Positions 33,562 through 51,975 of a stretch of 64,000 nt of DNA are shown here, one piece after another. The notes under the pieces are model-generated. The model made no database searches. It saw nothing but the letters and a program-made list of their open reading frames with translations, and had not been told where the DNA came from. The stretch covers positions 13,154-77,153 of the forward strand of contig JBJXGV010000070.1 in the NCBI GenBank assembly GCA_046160485.1, read 5' to 3'. The DNA comes from a bacterium. Its GTDB lineage: Bacteria > Orphanbacterota > Orphanbacteria > JBJXGV01. Positions within the stretch are counted from its first letter, which is position 1, and the number at the start of each line of letters is the position of its first letter. Made by a program: the position numbers and the translations under genes.

Positions 33562-34528
33562 TGACGAAGCTCACCATGTTGCCCCAGCGCCCCTCGCCCA
33601 GGAAGTGCGACGGCGGCTTCTCGACGAGCGTTCGGCGAATCACCGCGGCGATCTCGCCGCGCCAATTCGGCGACGCGAGGTGCTGTGCGAGCGCCACGTT
33701 TTCCTCGGAGAAGAGGCAACTCCGCAATTCGCCGCGCGCCGTGAGGCGAAGCCGGTTGCAGTTCTCGCAGAAATTATGCGAAAGCGGGCTGATGAAACCG
33801 ACGAGGCCTTTTCCGTCGCCGCGCGAGTAGTACCGCGCCGGACCGCCCCGCTCCTCGAGAACCACCTCGCGCCACGTGCCGTTCGCGCGAAGCCGCGCCT
33901 TAATCTCTTCGTTCGAAACGAAGCGGTCGGGCTGAAAGTCGGCGTTGGCCGCCGTCGGCATCAGCTCGATGAACCGGACCATAACGGGAAGCCGCGCGGA
34001 GAGATCAGCGACGCGTTCGATGTCGTCCTCGTTGACGCCGCGCAGGATCACCGCGTTGACCTTGACCGGCGCCATTCCCGCTTCAATCGCCGCATCGAGT
34101 CCCGAGAGGACGCGTCCGAGAAAATCCTCGCCCGCCATGCGCACGAAGAGTTCGGGGTCGAGCGTGTCGATGCTGATGTTGACGCCCGAGACGCCGGCTG
34201 CCTGGAGCGGGCGCGCCAGCTTCTCGAGCAGCACCCCGTTCGTCGAGAGATGAATGGTTCGGATTTGCGGCAGCGCCCGAATCCCCGAGACGATTTCGAG
34301 GATGTCCTTGCGAAGAAGCGGCTCGCCGCCTGTCAGGCGCACGCGCTCGATCCCCATCTCGGCGAACACCGAAACGAGTCGAACGAAGTGGTCCGCGGAG
34401 AGGAAATTATCGTGCGGCGTAAAACCAGTCTTGCCGTCGGGCAGGCAATACGTGCACGCCAGATTGCAGTTCTGCGTAACCGAGACCCGCAGATACGTGA
34501 GCCGCCGGCCAATGCCGTCGATGAGCAT
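33548..34528 (-). CDS. moaA: GTP 3',8-cyclase (radical SAM, molybdenum cofactor biosynthesis)
   Basis: CNLACTYCLP radical-SAM CxxxCxxC motif, GGEPLL, C-terminal CxxCxRxR cluster (CENCNRLRL). Confidence 0.85.
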   Translation of the reverse strand: MLIDGIGRRLTYLRVSVTQNCNLACTYCLPDGKTGFTPHDNFLSADHFVRLVSVFAEMGIERVRLTGGEPLLRKDILEIVSGIRALPQIRTIHLSTNGVLLEKLARPLQAAGVSGVNISIDTLDPELFVRMAGEDFLGRVLSGLDAAIEAGMAPVKVNAVILRGVNEDDIERVADLSARLPVMVRFIELMPTAANADFQPDRFVSNEEIKARLRANGTWREVVLEERGGPARYYSRGDGKGLVGFISPLSHNFCENCNRLRLTARGELRSCLFSEENVALAQHLASPNWRGEIAAVIRRTLVEKPPSHFLGEGRWGNMVSFVNVGG

Positions 34529-34670
34529 GACACGCTCTCCTTTCCAAGAAAGGGAGGCGACGCCGTTTCCGGCGCCACCCTATCGGCCGGTCGCTCGTAG
34601 CTACACGCCGTAGAGCGACGGGCTCGGAGAGTTCAGAATAGAGCGAGGGTAGAACGGCGTGCGGACCGCG

Positions 34671-46120: not shown

Positions 46121-46154
46121 AAAAAAAACACCCTGCGCAAGATAGCACAGGGTG
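46121..46154 (-). terminator. Rho-independent terminator (7-bp GC-rich stem, 12-nt loop, T8 tail) on the minus strand
   Basis: Minus-strand read: CACCCTG-tgctatcttgcg-CAGGGTG-TTTTTTTT. Lies 30 nt downstream of the small zinc-ribbon ORF stop; the only clean intrinsic terminator seen in the window. Confidence 0.6.
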
Positions 46155-47401: not shown

Positions 47402-48775
47402 ATGTCGTCGATCGCCCCAGTTCTTGCGCGCGCCGCGTCGCAGCGCGACCGCCACGTCGCCGAGCTAATCGAGTTTCTGCGAATCCCGAGTGTCTCCGCG
47501 GATTCGCGGCGGCGCGACGACATGGGGCGTTGCGCGGAGTTCGTCGCGGCGAAGCTGACGGCGGCTGGAATGGCCGCGCGCGTCTTCGCGACCGATGGGC
47601 ATCCGATCGTCTACGGAGAGCTGCTCGGGGCGCCAGGCCGCCCCACCGTCCTCGTCTACGGCCACTACGACGTACAGCCGCCCGATCCGCTCGAGCTGTG
47701 GACGAGTCCGCCGTTCGAGCCGCGCATCGACGGCGAAAACGTCTACGCGCGCGGCGCCGCGGACGACAAGGGCCAGGTCTACACGCATATCAAGGCCGTC
47801 GAGGCCTACCGCGATGCGGGCATCCCGCTCCCCGTGAACGTGAAGTTCCTCATCGAGGGCGAAGAAGAGGTCGCGAGTGTGCATCTCGACGACTTCCTCG
47901 AGCGCGAAAAGAAGCGGCTGGCTTGTGATGTCGTCGTCATCTCCGACACCAATCAGTTCGCGCCGGGTATTCCCGCGATCACCTACGGGCTCCGCGGCCT
48001 GACGTACATGGAGATGCGCGTCGACGGCCCCGAGAGAGATCTTCACTCCGGCGCGTTCGGCGGGGCGCTCGTCAACCCCGCGACGGCACTCGCCGCGATA
48101 CTCACGTCGCTCAAAGACGCAGGGGGCCGCATTCTGATTCCCGGCTTCCACGACGACATCGTGCCGCTCGCGAAGTGGGAGCGCGAGATGTGGGCCACGC
48201 TTCCGTTCGACGAAGAGGAGTTTCGGAAGATCGCCGGTTCGCCGCGGCTCACGGGCGAAACGGGGTACTCGACGCTCGAGCGGCGCTGGGCGCGGCCGAC
48301 GCTCGAGATCAACGGGATCTACGGCGGTTACCAGGGCGAAGGCGCGAAGACAGTGATCCCCGCTTGGGCCGGCGCGAAGATCAGCATGCGGCTCGTTCCG
48401 AATCAAGACCCGACGCGGATCGCGGAGCTTTTCGAGCGCGCCGTCGCGGATCGTTGTCCGGAGGGCGCGCGCGTGTCGACGACACGCCTCTCGGGGGGCA
48501 AGCCAGTGTTGGTCGCGGTCGACAGCGCCGAAATGCGCGCCGCAAGCCGCGCGATCGAACGCGGCTTCGGAAAGAAACCCGTCCTCATTCGAACGGGTGG
48601 CTCGATCCCCGTGGTCGCGAGCTTCAAAGAAACCCTGGGCGCCGACTCGCTGCTCGTCGGGTGGGGCCGGCCAGATGACAACTGCCACTCACCGAACGAG
48701 AAATTTCACCTTGGCGACTTCCAAAAAGCGATCGAAACCTCAGCCATCCTCTTCGCGGAACTCGGCGAAGCGTAA
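47402..48775 (+). CDS. M20-family metallopeptidase (dipeptidase-like)
   Basis: VYGHYDVQPP, ARGAADDKG, and C-terminal metal-ligand region of the M20/ArgE/DapE family; 457 aa. Confidence 0.8.
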   Translation: MSSIAPVLARAASQRDRHVAELIEFLRIPSVSADSRRRDDMGRCAEFVAAKLTAAGMAARVFATDGHPIVYGELLGAPGRPTVLVYGHYDVQPPDPLELWTSPPFEPRIDGENVYARGAADDKGQVYTHIKAVEAYRDAGIPLPVNVKFLIEGEEEVASVHLDDFLEREKKRLACDVVVISDTNQFAPGIPAITYGLRGLTYMEMRVDGPERDLHSGAFGGALVNPATALAAILTSLKDAGGRILIPGFHDDIVPLAKWEREMWATLPFDEEEFRKIAGSPRLTGETGYSTLERRWARPTLEINGIYGGYQGEGAKTVIPAWAGAKISMRLVPNQDPTRIAELFERAVADRCPEGARVSTTRLSGGKPVLVAVDSAEMRAASRAIERGFGKKPVLIRTGGSIPVVASFKETLGADSLLVGWGRPDDNCHSPNEKFHLGDFQKAIETSAILFAELGEA

Positions 48776-49427
48776 GGGCTGGGTTCGCTCGTCCGGCAGC
48801 GAGCCCTCGTCCGACGCTTGGGCCGGCGACTATCGCTTCTGCCCCGCTTGCGGCGGGCGTCTGACGATGGCGACCGCATCCGCGTCTGCGACCGCGAAAA
48901 CGACCGGGCCGTCGCGGCCGACGTGCAAAGCGTGCGGATTCGTCCACTGGAGCGAGCCCAAGTTGGCGGCGTGCGCGGTCGTTATCCTCGGCGGCCGCGT
49001 GCTTCTCGCGCGGCGCGGCATCGAGCCATCGATCGGCAAGTGGGTGATCCCGGGCGGGTTTGTCGAGCGCGGTGAGACGGTCGAGACTGCAGCCGTCCGC
49101 GAAACGCGCGAGGAGACAGGGCTCGACGTCAACCTCGTTGCGCTCCTGAACGTCTATTCGTATCACGGCGTCGGCGTCGTGCTTGTCGTGTTCGTCGCCG
49201 AGCCCACAAACGACAAACCCCCTGAGGCGCTCGACGAGACTCTCGAGGTGCGTTATTTCGCGTTCGACGAAATCCCGTGGGATGAAATCGGATTCTCGAG
49301 TTCGCACGACGCGCTGCGCGAGATCATCGAACTGGGCGTACCAGCTCGGGAACCGTTCCACTCCTCGATCTCGTCACAACCGCGTGCGAGGCGCTCTCGG
49401 CGCCTGGCGCGTTCCGGGAGCCGCTAA
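48675..49427 (+). CDS. Nudix hydrolase with N-terminal zinc ribbon (NudC-like)
   Basis: Zinc ribbon FCPACGGRL...CKACGF followed by Nudix box GGFVERGETVETAAVRETREETGL. Start uncertain: first in-frame ATG at 48675 overlaps the M20 gene by 100 nt. Confidence 0.65.
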   Translation: MTTATHRTRNFTLATSKKRSKPQPSSSRNSAKRKGWVRSSGSEPSSDAWAGDYRFCPACGGRLTMATASASATAKTTGPSRPTCKACGFVHWSEPKLAACAVVILGGRVLLARRGIEPSIGKWVIPGGFVERGETVETAAVRETREETGLDVNLVALLNVYSYHGVGVVLVVFVAEPTNDKPPEALDETLEVRYFAFDEIPWDEIGFSSSHDALREIIELGVPAREPFHSSISSQPRARRSRRLARSGSR

Positions 49428-49429
49428 CC

Positions 49430-50269
49430 GTGCTGGCTGATCTGCCCAATCTGAAAATCGTTCCGACGGCGAGCATTCACTTGCACGAGGAGTTCGACGA
49501 ACAGCGCGCCGTCGGACTCGGCGCCAAGATGCGAAAGGCCGGCATCCTGACGAATCCGCCGATCGTCGCGGCGATTCCGCGTAAACGCGAGTATGTCGTG
49601 CTCGACGGCGCGAACCGCGTGACGGCGGCGGCGCGAATCCGCCTGCCGACCTTGCTCGTTCAACTCGTCGACTACGACGACGCGGAGATCGTGCTCTCGA
49701 ATTGGGCGCACGTCGTGAGGGGATTTCCCGCGGCGAAGTTTTTCAGCGAGGCGCAGGCGCTCTACGGCGCGCGAATCGACGCCGCACCCTTCGCCGACGC
49801 GCGCCGCGAACTGGCGAATCGCCGCATTTCGTGCTTCTTCCATCACAAAGATCGCGGCACGTTCGTGCTGCGCCGCGTCACGACGCGTGGCTCGGATGCC
49901 ACCGAGGTGAAAGCCCTTCGCGACATCACGGGAATCTACAAGGACCGCGCGTCGATCGTCAGAATCCCGCTCACGGCGGAAAACGCGAAAGACCTGGCCG
50001 TGTACGACGGATTCGTGGTCGCGTTTCCGACGTTCTCGAAGGCGGACATCGTGCGCTGCGCGGTGCGTCCGGACGACCGCCTCCCGACCGGCATTTCGCG
50101 CCACACGATTCCGCTGCGCGCGCTGCGTGTGAATCTCCCGCTGTCGGTGCTCCGCTCGTCGAAGCCGCTCACCGAGAAGAATCGTATCCTCGATGCGTTC
50201 ATCGCGCGCAAGGCGCGCACGAGTTCGATCCGCCTCTACAACGAGCCGACGTTTATCTACGACGATTGA
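49430..50269 (+). CDS. ParB/Srx-fold protein of unknown function (DGxxR motif)
   Basis: N-terminus KIVPTASIHLHEEFDEQR...ILTNPPIVAA...YVVLDGANRVTAA matches the ParB N-domain/sulfiredoxin pattern; starts 3 nt after the Nudix stop. No DNA-binding HTH recognised. Confidence 0.5.
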   Translation: MLADLPNLKIVPTASIHLHEEFDEQRAVGLGAKMRKAGILTNPPIVAAIPRKREYVVLDGANRVTAAARIRLPTLLVQLVDYDDAEIVLSNWAHVVRGFPAAKFFSEAQALYGARIDAAPFADARRELANRRISCFFHHKDRGTFVLRRVTTRGSDATEVKALRDITGIYKDRASIVRIPLTAENAKDLAVYDGFVVAFPTFSKADIVRCAVRPDDRLPTGISRHTIPLRALRVNLPLSVLRSSKPLTEKNRILDAFIARKARTSSIRLYNEPTFIYDD

Positions 50270-50303
50270 TCGCGGTGCCCCACCGCGCGCGGCGGGCGAG
50301 GCG

Positions 50304-51167
50304 TTATGCGCGCGCGCGCGGCGGCGTCTCGACGACGCTGATGAGCCGCGTGAGTCGATCGGCGCGCCCCTTGTCGTTCCCTTCGCGGCAGATGTGCACG
50401 AGGTTGCGGAGCATGCGGCAGAGGATTTCCCGCGGCGGCGACGGAACGAAATGTTCGGGGCGCGGCTCGAATCCCGCCGCCGTAAGAAACCGCGCACAGT
50501 CACTCCGCGAAAGAATGCGGCCGCGGCTGAACGCGTCGACGAAATGCTCTTCGTCGGAGCACGAGAAACGCACGACGAAATGCCCGGGGAAACCGACGCC
50601 TTCCATCTTGAGCCCAACTCGCCGAGCGAGGAACAAGTAGACGAGCGACAGCGTAATCGGAATTCCCGTGCGGCGATCGAGCACGCGGTTCATGTACGAG
50701 TTGTCCGCGTCGTAGTAGTCGAGACTGTTGCCGGAGAATCCGAACTCGTCGAAGAGGGTTTGCGCGAACGCGCCGAGGATATCGCGGCCGCGCCGCAGCC
50801 CGGCGAGCCGTTCGCGCAACGTCGCCGCCATCTCGGCGAGAAGGCGGTCGCAGTGCTCGCGATCGAGATCGGGATACCCGATGCGCGATATCAGGAACGC
50901 GCCCGTCTCGAGGCCCGCCGCGTCGATCGGCGAGCGCGCGAAGACTTCGATGGCGGCTTCCGCTTCGTCCATCGTGATCTCGTCGAGAATCGAGCGGGCG
51001 CGCACGCGGACCGGCTCGATCTGACTCTCGAGCGCGACGGCCAGAAACGGCTTCGCCTCGGGGCCGGCCTCGAGAATTCGTTCGCGAACGATGCGAGCGA
51101 CCTTCTGATTCTCGTCGTCGAGGAGAGAGACCAGCGCCTTCAGCGCGCTTTCCGAAACGGCTTTCAT
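50304..51167 (-). CDS. SirB1/UPF0162-like transglutaminase-like family protein
   Basis: Start at internal Met (MKAVSESALKAL). ITLSLVYLFLARRVGLKMEGVGFPGHFVVRF matches the conserved core of the SirB1-type transglutaminase-like family. Confidence 0.55.
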   Translation of the reverse strand: MKAVSESALKALVSLLDDENQKVARIVRERILEAGPEAKPFLAVALESQIEPVRVRARSILDEITMDEAEAAIEVFARSPIDAAGLETGAFLISRIGYPDLDREHCDRLLAEMAATLRERLAGLRRGRDILGAFAQTLFDEFGFSGNSLDYYDADNSYMNRVLDRRTGIPITLSLVYLFLARRVGLKMEGVGFPGHFVVRFSCSDEEHFVDAFSRGRILSRSDCARFLTAAGFEPRPEHFVPSPPREILCRMLRNLVHICREGNDKGRADRLTRLISVVETPPRARA

Positions 51168-51396: not shown

Positions 51397-51975
51397 ATGG
51401 CCATCGAGCCGTGGAAGACGATTCACCAGAGCGAGCGCGAGTCGTACCGCATCTTTTCGGTGCGGCGGGAGACGGCGGTCTCGCAGACGAGCGGAGTCTC
51501 GCACGAGTTTATCGTGATCGAGGCGCCGACGTGGGTGAACGTGATTCCGATCACGCCGGAAGACGACGTGGTGTTCGTGCGCCAGCACCGTCAGGGGACG
51601 CGAAGCGTGACGCTCGAGATTCCGGGCGGCATGGCCCATCGCGGCGAAACGCCGGAGGAGGCGGGCGCGCGCGAGTTGCTCGAGGAAACCGGCTTCCGCG
51701 GAGACCGCGTCGTGAGCATCGGTAGCGTCTACCCGAACCCGGCGATCCAGAACAACATCTGCCACACCGTGCTGGTCGAGGGCGCGCGCCGCGTCGCGGA
51801 TCCGACGCCCGATCCGTCGGAAGAACTCGAGACGCAACTCATCCCGCTTGCGGATATTCCGCGCCGCATTCGCGACGGCGAGATCACGCACGCGCTCGTC
51901 GTCGCCGCGTTTCATCACCTCGCGATCTTGCGGCCGCCGAATGCTGCGGCCGCGACCGAAACCGGCCGCGCGTGA
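51397..51975 (+). CDS. Nudix hydrolase (ADP-ribose pyrophosphatase-like)
   Basis: Nudix box GGMAHRGETPEEAGARELLEETGF; 192 aa. Confidence 0.75.
   Translation: MAIEPWKTIHQSERESYRIFSVRRETAVSQTSGVSHEFIVIEAPTWVNVIPITPEDDVVFVRQHRQGTRSVTLEIPGGMAHRGETPEEAGARELLEETGFRGDRVVSIGSVYPNPAIQNNICHTVLVEGARRVADPTPDPSEELETQLIPLADIPRRIRDGEITHALVVAAFHHLAILRPPNAAAATETGRA

Follow-up and report, generated by a model that had tools for sequence, protein, structure and literature searches.

A divergent SerK/SbnI-family protein, probably a free L-serine kinase, encoded behind a zinc-ribbon Nudix gene in an Orphanbacterota genome

The DNA considered here is a stretch of 64,000 nt from a genome of the bacterial phylum Orphanbacterota (assembly GCA_046160485.1, contig JBJXGV010000070.1, positions 13,154 to 77,153 of the forward strand; hereafter the window), and its subject is a pair of genes at positions 48675-50269 of the window. 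Both genes lie on the forward strand and were recognised by reading the open reading frames (ORFs): the first encodes a zinc-ribbon Nudix hydrolase, and the second, which begins directly behind it, a 279-aa protein with the motif DGANR in its N-terminal domain. The pair is preceded by a gene for an M20 dipeptidase and followed by a convergent gene with a Transglut_core2 domain (Table 1). An earlier inspection of the same DNA, made from its letters only and called the sequence-only reading below, had noticed the two coupled-looking ORFs, the Nudix box and zinc ribbon of the first and the DGANR motif of the second, all of which were confirmed by direct reading. Both ORFs have many conserved homologues and are therefore not chance ORFs. 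We conclude that the 279-aa protein belongs, as a divergent bacterial representative, to the SerK/SbnI family, which at the level of homology is near certain, that it probably phosphorylates free L-serine, and that its position beside the Nudix gene is a gene-order feature of one lineage, not a conserved two-step nucleotide-processing or defence module.

Among the NCBIfam models, the 279-aa protein matches SbnI with an E-value of 3.5e-12 and 46.2 bits (residues 7-276 against positions 7-251 of a model of 254) and SerK with 2e-6 and 27.2 bits; a phmmer comparison with the SbnI structure 5UJE gave 1.4e-7. A profile from an alignment of 26 family members, run against all PDB sequences, returned exactly seven distinct matches at E <= 0.01: three of SbnI (1.5e-26, 4.5e-25 and 1.8e-24), PF0380 (1.3e-13) and three of SerK (1.1e-12 to 2e-11). 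The alignments to SbnI, PF0380 and SerK all cross both domains, and no ParB or sulfiredoxin (Srx) entry of the PDB was matched at that threshold. The AlphaFold2 model built with the same alignment (predicted local distance difference test, pLDDT, 92.7; predicted TM-score, pTM, 0.87) was compared with the PDB by Foldseek, and SbnI, PF0380 and SerK took the first nine ranks (E 4e-18 to 3e-13; TM-scores 0.63-0.71 when normalised by the query and 0.71-0.81 when normalised by the target), with SbnI at the top (E 3.9e-18, TM-scores 0.71 and 0.81). ParB, Noc and Srx rank next, over about 80 N-terminal residues only (E 1e-4 to 1e-2). The two-domain architecture of SerK and SbnI, a ParB/Srx-like nucleotide-binding domain joined to a family-specific C-terminal domain, is thus found over the full length of the protein. 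The sequence-only reading had assigned a ParB/Srx-type fold to the N-terminus and had pointed out that proteins of this fold include nucleotide-dependent small-molecule kinases; the fold is borne out by the ParB, Noc and Srx matches, and the kinase branch proved to be the right one by NCBIfam, profile and Foldseek alike. It had proposed profile searches against ParB, Srx and SerK, among others; SbnI and SerK were matched at full length by the profile, and ParB and Srx by Foldseek, over the N-terminal fold only.

Membership in the canonical ParB, DndB-type or Srx families was considered and rejected, as the N-terminal fold is all that is shared. A ParB CTPase clamp was rejected as well: Pfam found only a sub-threshold match to ParB_N (PF02195, 12.1 bits against a cutoff of 26.3) and no domain of the helix-turn-helix (HTH) type for binding DNA in the 279-aa protein, the loop reads DGANR and not GERRxR, and the structures match over about 80 residues. 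In current annotation the protein is an NCBI "ParB N-terminal domain-containing protein", and some of its relatives are labelled [quoted passage not shown] by JGI.

The residues expected at the active site are conserved. Glu20 aligns with the Glu of PF0380 (1VK1) that corresponds to E30 in SerK numbering, the residue replaced in the E30A and E30Q mutants named in the titles of PDB entries, and also with the Glu of the SbnI HE motif; it is invariant in the alignment of 26 members, and 258 out of 268 sequences of the family have HE. In the loop that follows, D59, G60 and R63 are invariant in the same alignment and DGxxR occurs in nearly all of the 268 sequences, among which 203 read DGANR, 41 read DGATR and most others have further DGx[N/T/S]R forms (His is found in only 2). 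DGANR, which the sequence-only reading had singled out, is therefore a genuine hallmark of a clade. The C-terminal domain carries the pattern P-x-G-I-S-R-H...R-A-L-R-V-N, which can be aligned with SbnI and in which P219, G221, I222, H225, R230-A-L232 and N235 are invariant in the 26 members. Nothing in this comparison of active sites suggests a loss of catalysis; the exchange of His for Asn in the loop may bear on the donor preference.

Table 1. Genes, motifs and other features at the locus (positions in the window).
Feature	Position	Strand	Evidence
279-aa SerK/SbnI-family protein of the DGANR clade, putative free L-serine kinase	49430..50269	+	NCBIfam, profile, AlphaFold2 model, Foldseek
His19-Glu20 of the 279-aa protein	49484..49489	+	Glu20 aligned to the catalytic SerK E30 via PF0380
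DGANR loop, Asp59-Gly-Ala-Asn-Arg63	49604..49618	+	counterpart of DGVHR in SbnI, DGHHR in PF0380, Box II of ParB and GCHR of Srx
C-terminal domain motif, PTGISRHTIPLRALRVN	50084..50134	+	shared with SbnI (PAGVTRFNISGRCLNLQV); aligned with PF0380
GGGAG in front of the kinase-like gene, resembling a Shine-Dalgarno motif	49416..49420	+	direct reading; same place in the closest relative (L094)
Zinc-ribbon Nudix hydrolase gene, 3CNG-like	48675..49427 (maximal ATG-started reading)	+	Pfam NUDIX, PF14803, PDB 3CNG
Four-Cys zinc ribbon of the Nudix protein	48840..48935	+	CPAC 48840-48851, CKAC 48924-48935
Nudix box, GX5EX7REUXEEXGU, complete, GFVERGETVETAAVRETREETGL	49056..49124	+	translation; G, E, RE and EE invariant in an alignment of Nudix orthologues
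18-codon C-terminal read-through of the Nudix ORF, specific to the window	49371..49427	+	TAA of the closest relative (L094) aligns with TCG 49371-49373
M20 dipeptidase gene, directly 5' of the Nudix gene	47402..48775	+	Pfam Peptidase_M20 and M20_dimer
SirB1-like Transglut_core2 gene, convergent with the kinase-like gene	50304..51167	-	Pfam Transglut_core2, E 2.5e-47
Second Nudix gene, NudE-like, under the cutoff	51397..51975	+	Pfam NUDIX, 1.8e-15

The closest characterised relative by fold is SbnI of Staphylococcus aureus and S. pseudintermedius (5UJE, 5UJD, 6NR6), the ATP-dependent free L-serine kinase of staphyloferrin B synthesis. The 279-aa protein shares with it the full-length two-domain fold, the Glu of the HE motif, an Asp-Gly-x-x-Arg loop and a P-x-G-[IV]-[ST]-R ... 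L-x-[LV] motif, but the two are only 18-21% identical, the loop is DGANR and not DGVHR, there is neither an sbn siderophore operon nor an SbnA neighbour, and nothing indicates a regulatory or heme-binding role. SerK of Thermococcus kodakarensis (TK0378; 5X0B and others) and PF0380 (1VK1) represent the archaeal, ADP-dependent free serine kinases; here the two-domain fold (profile E 1e-12 to 1e-13, Foldseek E about 1e-14), the position of the catalytic Glu and, at the level of the family, a link to cysteine synthesis via O-phosphoserine are held in common, whereas identity is 12-16% and DGANR stands against the DGHHR of PF0380. Homologues of SerK were reported only in Thermococcales and Desulfurococcales (PMC5120207), while the DGANR clade is bacterial (Chloroflexota, Burkholderiales, Armatimonadota, Latescibacterota and others). 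With the ParB/Noc clamps and sulfiredoxin the likeness is confined to the nucleotide-binding fold of about 80 N-terminal residues, with the loop at the position of Box II and of GCHR; the GERRxR of ParB and Noc is missing. An analogy exists with DUF1015 ("SerBK"), which was proposed to comprise serine-kinase-like enzymes of the phosphoserine pathway and is remotely of SbnI-like fold and genomically tied to serA (GapMind 2026 preprint): the tie to serA there has its parallel in fusions to SerA in the DGANR clade (see below), although DUF1015 is a different family and the 279-aa protein has no DUF1015 match in Pfam. A survey of the ParB-CTPase fold (PNAS 2025) mentions SerK and SbnI, not Nudix.

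The family to which the protein belongs is sizeable. A word index gave 313 matches, at least 513 relatives were found among GTDB species representatives, and clustering at 50% identity yielded 458 representatives at E <= 1e-30, 1225 at 1e-10 and 1989 at 1e-3. Most members come from metagenome-assembled genomes (MAGs) of Chloroflexota, Burkholderiales/Comamonadaceae, Armatimonadota, Latescibacterota, Eisenbacteria and Patescibacteria.

The genomic surroundings of these relatives were computed for 80 GTDB loci, counting neighbours within 3 kb of the kinase-like gene. At least one of eight kinds of gene (CBS-type, TrpB2, CysM-type, ThiS, JAB, ThiF-rhodanese, SerB, Rrf2) was present at 49 of the 80 loci. 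A CBS-type pyridoxal phosphate (PLP) enzyme was found at 24 loci, usually directly 5' of the kinase-like gene and often overlapping it (TIGR01137, 552 bits against a cutoff of 510; e.g., the locus L088, with CBS and kinase), a TrpB-like TrpB2 at 11 (TIGR01415, 623 bits) and a CysM-type synthase at 10. Carriers similar to ThiS were equally frequent as the CBS-type enzymes (24 loci, and 4 more that best match the ThiS part of a fusion protein in L090), and they were joined by Prok-JAB (10 loci), ThiF-rhodanese proteins of the MoeB/MoeZ-like type (7), Rrf2 (5) and the phosphoserine phosphatase SerB (8 loci; TIGR00338, 217 bits against a cutoff of 144). Several of these partners may stand together, as in L090 (a ThiS::kinase fusion with CysM, JAB and Rrf2) or in L089 (kinase, TrpB2 and SerB). 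The latter is one of eight loci of Comamonadaceae and other Betaproteobacteria (L003, L008, L009, L011, L012, L014, L051 and L089) with a conserved trio, in which TrpB2 follows the kinase-like gene at about 145 nt on the 3' side and SerB is convergent; the arrangement suggests a dedicated phosphoserine supply for TrpB2. At two loci the gene directly 5' of the kinase-like gene encodes a GcvT-like aminomethyltransferase, another context of glycine/serine metabolism (L010:3625-4749 in Candidatus Eisenbacteria, where the two genes overlap, and L016:5888-6988, where they are 12 nt apart).

Gene fusions give the same picture. The N-terminus of the kinase-like protein is fused to a ThiS/MoaD sulfur carrier in four proteins (P0088, P0095, P0099 and P0107), to Prok-JAB in one (P0415) and to a SerA-like phosphoglycerate dehydrogenase in another four (P0450, P0452, P0503 and P0510; TIGR01327, 357-382 bits over the catalytic and NAD domains). 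In the Rosetta-stone sense, such fusions connect the clade with cysteine synthesis that depends on thiocarboxylate and with the phosphoserine pathway.

As an observation apart, the kinase-like gene of one Latescibacterota locus (L033:7890-9435) is followed on its 3' side by genes of the isochorismatase and QRPTase families, which resemble NAD salvage, and in a second one (L039:7889-9434, also Latescibacterota) unannotated ORFs of corresponding sizes and positions are found.

Two of the proteins concerned have documented roles in the use or supply of phosphoserine: CysM of Mycobacterium tuberculosis uses O-phospho-L-serine together with the carrier CysO (PMC11361707), and in T. kodakarensis SerK supplies phosphoserine for cysteine synthesis (PMC5120207). 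Because O-phospho-L-serine is the common denominator of all the partners listed above, a serine kinase activity was assigned to the 279-aa protein, and we regard this assignment, drawn from family and context, as probable. In such an enzyme the ParB/sulfiredoxin-like N-terminal domain would bind the nucleotide phosphate donor (ATP or ADP) via the loop Asp59-Gly-Ala-Asn-Arg63, Glu20 of the His-Glu motif would act as general base on the serine hydroxyl, and the C-terminal domain (Ser223-Arg224-His225 and onward) would complete the substrate site; the product, O-phospho-L-serine, may then feed phosphoserine-dependent PLP enzymes or the phosphoserine pathway.

The reaction might also run in the opposite, catabolic direction, with the protein replacing SerB (phosphoserine + ADP to serine + ATP, a reaction proposed for the unrelated DUF1015 family) or serving the conversion of serine to 3-phosphoglycerate in place of a supply of phosphoserine to cysteine or tryptophan synthesis, or, as a variant, phosphorylating a related hydroxy-amino acid. 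The SerA-like fusions and the GcvT neighbours would suit such a role, as would the contribution of SerK to serine assimilation in T. kodakarensis (PMC5120207), the suggestion that SerB can be replaced by a protein of SbnI-like fold, with a benefit for the use of serine (GapMind 2026 preprint), and the lack of a local phosphoserine consumer in the 64 kb of the window. However, the same preprint notes that the reverse reaction is thermodynamically unfavourable, SerB itself is encoded beside the family gene at 8 loci, and the commonest neighbours are consumers of phosphoserine, so that we consider a catabolic role unlikely.

The partner that gave the locus its apparent interest is the Nudix gene, and here the range of the pairing matters. 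Close relatives of the kinase-like protein (50-85% identity) are restricted to about seven genomes of one lineage, and all loci of this lineage have the M20 dipeptidase, the zinc-ribbon Nudix and the kinase-like gene in this order, followed by Transglut_core2 on the minus strand. The conserved gene order extends over more than 15 kb, from QueG/ETF-QO on one side to DUF4438, AhpC and FlgD_ig on the other, and the genes around the pair are housekeeping genes. ETF-QO is 74-85% identical within the lineage and at most 58% identical to anything else (mixed phyla); the identity of the kinase-like protein drops from 52-70% straight to 43% or less in two large collections, with no relatives at 43-50% in the metagenome collection scanned. 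By these identities, the lineage is deep, rare and sparsely sampled. A tblastn search, which recovered every positive control, located a gene of the same Nudix type beside the kinase-like gene in all loci of the lineage and in none of the 157 family loci outside it; a single weak match outside the lineage (L059) lies 6 kb from the kinase-like gene. Conversely, Nudix homologues at 46-51% identity in other phyla (L092, L093) have unrelated neighbours and no kinase partner. The co-occurrence expected from the sequence-only reading therefore holds narrowly, in about seven syntenic genomes, and was not found beyond this lineage.

The sequence-only reading had suggested that the two genes form a two-step unit that processes a nucleotide derivative, possibly in signalling or defence; salvage would be a further role for such a unit, and the dipeptidase might be added to it. 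In its favour, each of the about seven genomes has the two genes side by side on one strand despite divergence to about 50% (kinase) and about 66-73% (Nudix), they are separated by 2 nt in the window and are called with a 4-nt overlap in two relatives (L087 and L091), and no terminator-like site was detected on the plus strand within the three genes. Nevertheless, the whole neighbourhood of more than 15 kb, unrelated housekeeping genes included, is conserved to the same degree, the pairing is absent from the 157 other loci, the Nudix homologues elsewhere do without a kinase partner, and phosphoserine metabolism is what every other context and fusion of the family indicates. A relation to defence or signalling is not indicated either: PADLOC gave only a generic Nudix match (PDC-S07, 45 bits) and a marginal ParB-like match (E 0.0015). 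The adjacency is explained by inherited gene order at least as well as by function; we think it improbable that the pair forms a two-step unit, and a mechanistic coupling between kinase and Nudix is quite probably absent. The pair is thus an ordinary, lineage-specific gene order and not a new system.

The tight spacing of the two genes, the feature most suggestive of coupling, turned out to be derived. The Nudix stop codon (TAA 49425-49427) and the start of the kinase-like gene (GTG 49430) leave a gap of 2 nt because the original stop codon of the Nudix gene has been lost in the window, and the region that is now read through corresponds to intergenic spacer in the relatives, whose Nudix proteins (178-199 aa) all terminate at PFHSS[L/P]. 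The spacer measures 57 nt in the closest relative (L094) and 46-71 nt in others. The close adjacency described by the sequence-only reading (given there as 3 nt, with translational coupling) is therefore real, but it is a recent accident of the window sequence. A start codon has been lost as well: in a DNA alignment the ATG start of the closest relative falls on GTT 48783-48785, the ancestral start position, so that the window gene is left with three candidate starts: ATG 48675 and TTG 48711, which both lie inside the M20 gene, and ATG 48867. The last of the three is implied by a product of 186 aa listed by NCBI and would remove the first zinc knuckle. The lost start and stop codons could reflect real drift or an error in the assembly of the MAG.

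Its ends aside, the upstream gene codes for an ordinary Nudix pyrophosphatase with a zinc ribbon; it is of the widespread 3CNG/PF14803 type and, judged by its sequence, catalytically intact. It matches Pfam NUDIX (PF00293) with 83.7 bits (cutoff 21.1, E 1.5e-23) and, at its N-terminus, Zn_ribbon_Nudix (PF14803, E 2.2e-4), and its best solved relative, with the ribbon included in the alignment, is 3CNG (E 2.6e-26), an uncharacterised structural-genomics protein of Nitrosomonas europaea with the architecture PF14803 plus PF00293. This architecture occurs in hundreds of Nudix homologues, and the PF14803 family is very large (958 matches at E <= 1e-10). Two ribbon cysteines (C84 and C87) are invariant among the orthologues and the other two (C56 and C59) nearly so. 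The copy in the window differs from the 3CNG type by an insertion of 6 residues within the loop of the ribbon, by the 18-residue read-through and by the lost start codon.

The identification of this gene as NudC was tried and rejected. NudC likewise has a Nudix domain behind a Cys4 zinc ribbon, and to this extent the term NudC-like, used in the sequence-only reading, describes a loose architectural resemblance; however, NudC has an N-terminal NudC domain that the upstream gene lacks, the ribbon model PF09297 matches just 13 residues (E 0.08), and the NAD diphosphatase model NF001299 gives 46.3 bits against a cutoff of 158. The motif SQPWPFPxS is the specificity motif of NudC, and direct reading of the translation found no motif of this type on the 3' side of the Nudix box.

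Taking protein and pairing together, our main explanation is that the second gene encodes a divergent free L-serine kinase from the SerK/SbnI family and that the adjacent Nudix gene belongs to the gene order of the lineage and not to a conserved unit; we assign this a probability of about 0.65. Several observations weigh against it. The NCBIfam scores are far under the equivalog cutoffs (46 against 350 bits for SbnI and 27 against 380 for SerK), and the protein is therefore not an orthologue of either enzyme. In the loop, Asn takes the place of the His of SbnI and SerK (the clade has N, T or S at this position), and to judge from the alignment, the specificity for donor or substrate, or even the activity, could differ as a consequence. 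No homologue of PALP/PLP beta-replacement enzymes, ThiS, ThiF, JAB or SerB was found in the 64-kb window; the window lineage is thus without a phosphoserine-using enzyme over this distance, and the metabolic context is taken from relatives at 33-43% identity. Finally, the adjacency with the Nudix gene was kept while the proteins diverged to about 50%, always on the same strand and tight behind the M20 gene. The tight spacing of the genes and the lack of a plus-strand terminator-like site within them would suit an operon-level functional link, which we judge improbable.

A nucleotide-gated regulator that is not primarily an enzyme, with heme-responsive DNA binding as reported for a second role of SbnI or a CTP-type switch in the manner of ParB, is very unlikely, because the ParB-CTPase fold of the N-terminal domain, the NCBIfam description of SbnI as a bifunctional transcriptional regulator/O-phospho-L-serine synthase, the CTP bound by an archaeal SerK-like protein in the PNAS 2025 survey and the His-to-Asn change in the nucleotide loop are set against the lack of an HTH domain in Pfam (with ParB_N below threshold), best whole-length structural matches to the two-domain serine kinases SbnI and SerK and not to ParB clamps, the invariance of the catalytic Glu and of the C-terminal substrate-domain motifs, and family members fused to metabolic enzymes and sulfur-carrier proteins.

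Beyond the window, the putative serine kinase points to a sizeable bacterial SerK/SbnI-like clade, the members of which are mostly annotated as "hypothetical" or "ParB N-terminal domain-containing", and which is consistently tied to cysteine synthesis of the CysO/CysM/Mec/MoeZ-like and CBS-like types, to TrpB2, to SerA and to SerB. To our knowledge, the free serine kinases characterised up to now come only from staphylococci and a few archaea, and the literature searched contained no paper that links a serine kinase to CysO/CysM, to thiocarboxylate chemistry or to TrpB2. We are inclined to think that the whole DG[A/V][N/T/S]R clade represents a widespread way for bacteria to make O-phosphoserine from serine, which has been overlooked and serves CysO/CysM-type, CBS-type and TrpB2 enzymes. 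If this is true, TrpB2 and CysM-type enzymes would have a dedicated source of phosphoserine, and in uncultured Chloroflexota, Armatimonadota and Burkholderiales the pathways of cysteine, tryptophan and serine would be better annotated. A bolder possibility, namely that the kinase of the window lineage was moved from its usual context into an M20-Nudix operon, the three proteins of which would act jointly on a nucleotide- or peptide-linked serine derivative, or that it took on a new donor or substrate with its altered DGANR loop, has little probability in our view, and the modest, clade-wide route is the more likely of the two. For annotation, the DGANR clade offers a lead of modest interest, given the phosphoserine contexts that consistently go with it; the sequence-only reading had considered the pair most likely to be undescribed, and while the clade is indeed unnamed and uncharacterised, the enzyme family is known and some members already carry the JGI label of an L-serine kinase.

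Among the neighbouring genes, the M20 dipeptidase (548 bits against the NCBIfam dipeptidase model PRK08201, cutoff 441) occupies an identical position in every member of the lineage and may be co-transcribed with the Nudix and kinase-like genes, in that order. The SirB1-like gene and the second Nudix gene that the sequence-only reading had placed downstream are both present. The former scores 42.5 bits with the SirB1 model NF008188, far under its cutoff; its open frame extends to 51404 (366 aa), whereas the orthologues have 287-288 aa, and at its full length it would reach into the beginning of the second Nudix gene. The Met at 51167 (short form MKAVSE...) is therefore the likely start. The second Nudix gene (51.9 bits with the NudE model NF008736, cutoff 169) is found in only a part of the lineage members. 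On the minus strand, an ORF of 397 aa (49424-50617) runs antisense over the entire kinase-like gene; it is rich in Arg and Ala, a composition as expected of a chance open frame in DNA of 66% G+C, the value of the host DNA.

A scan for promoters and terminators between 46000 and 53500 gave no more sites than expected from shuffled sequence and is uninformative on operon structure. Outside the three genes, a strong terminator-like hairpin lies on the minus strand at 46129-46154, just upstream of the ETF-QO gene; it has a 10-bp stem with 7 G-C pairs, followed by T8, and at the same place the relatives of the lineage have an ORF of 54 aa. No tRNA genes were found in the window, but the window does contain, on the minus strand at 34521-34641, a molybdenum/tungsten cofactor (Moco) riboswitch that matches the full Rfam model RF01055 with 87.2 bits (gathering threshold 36).

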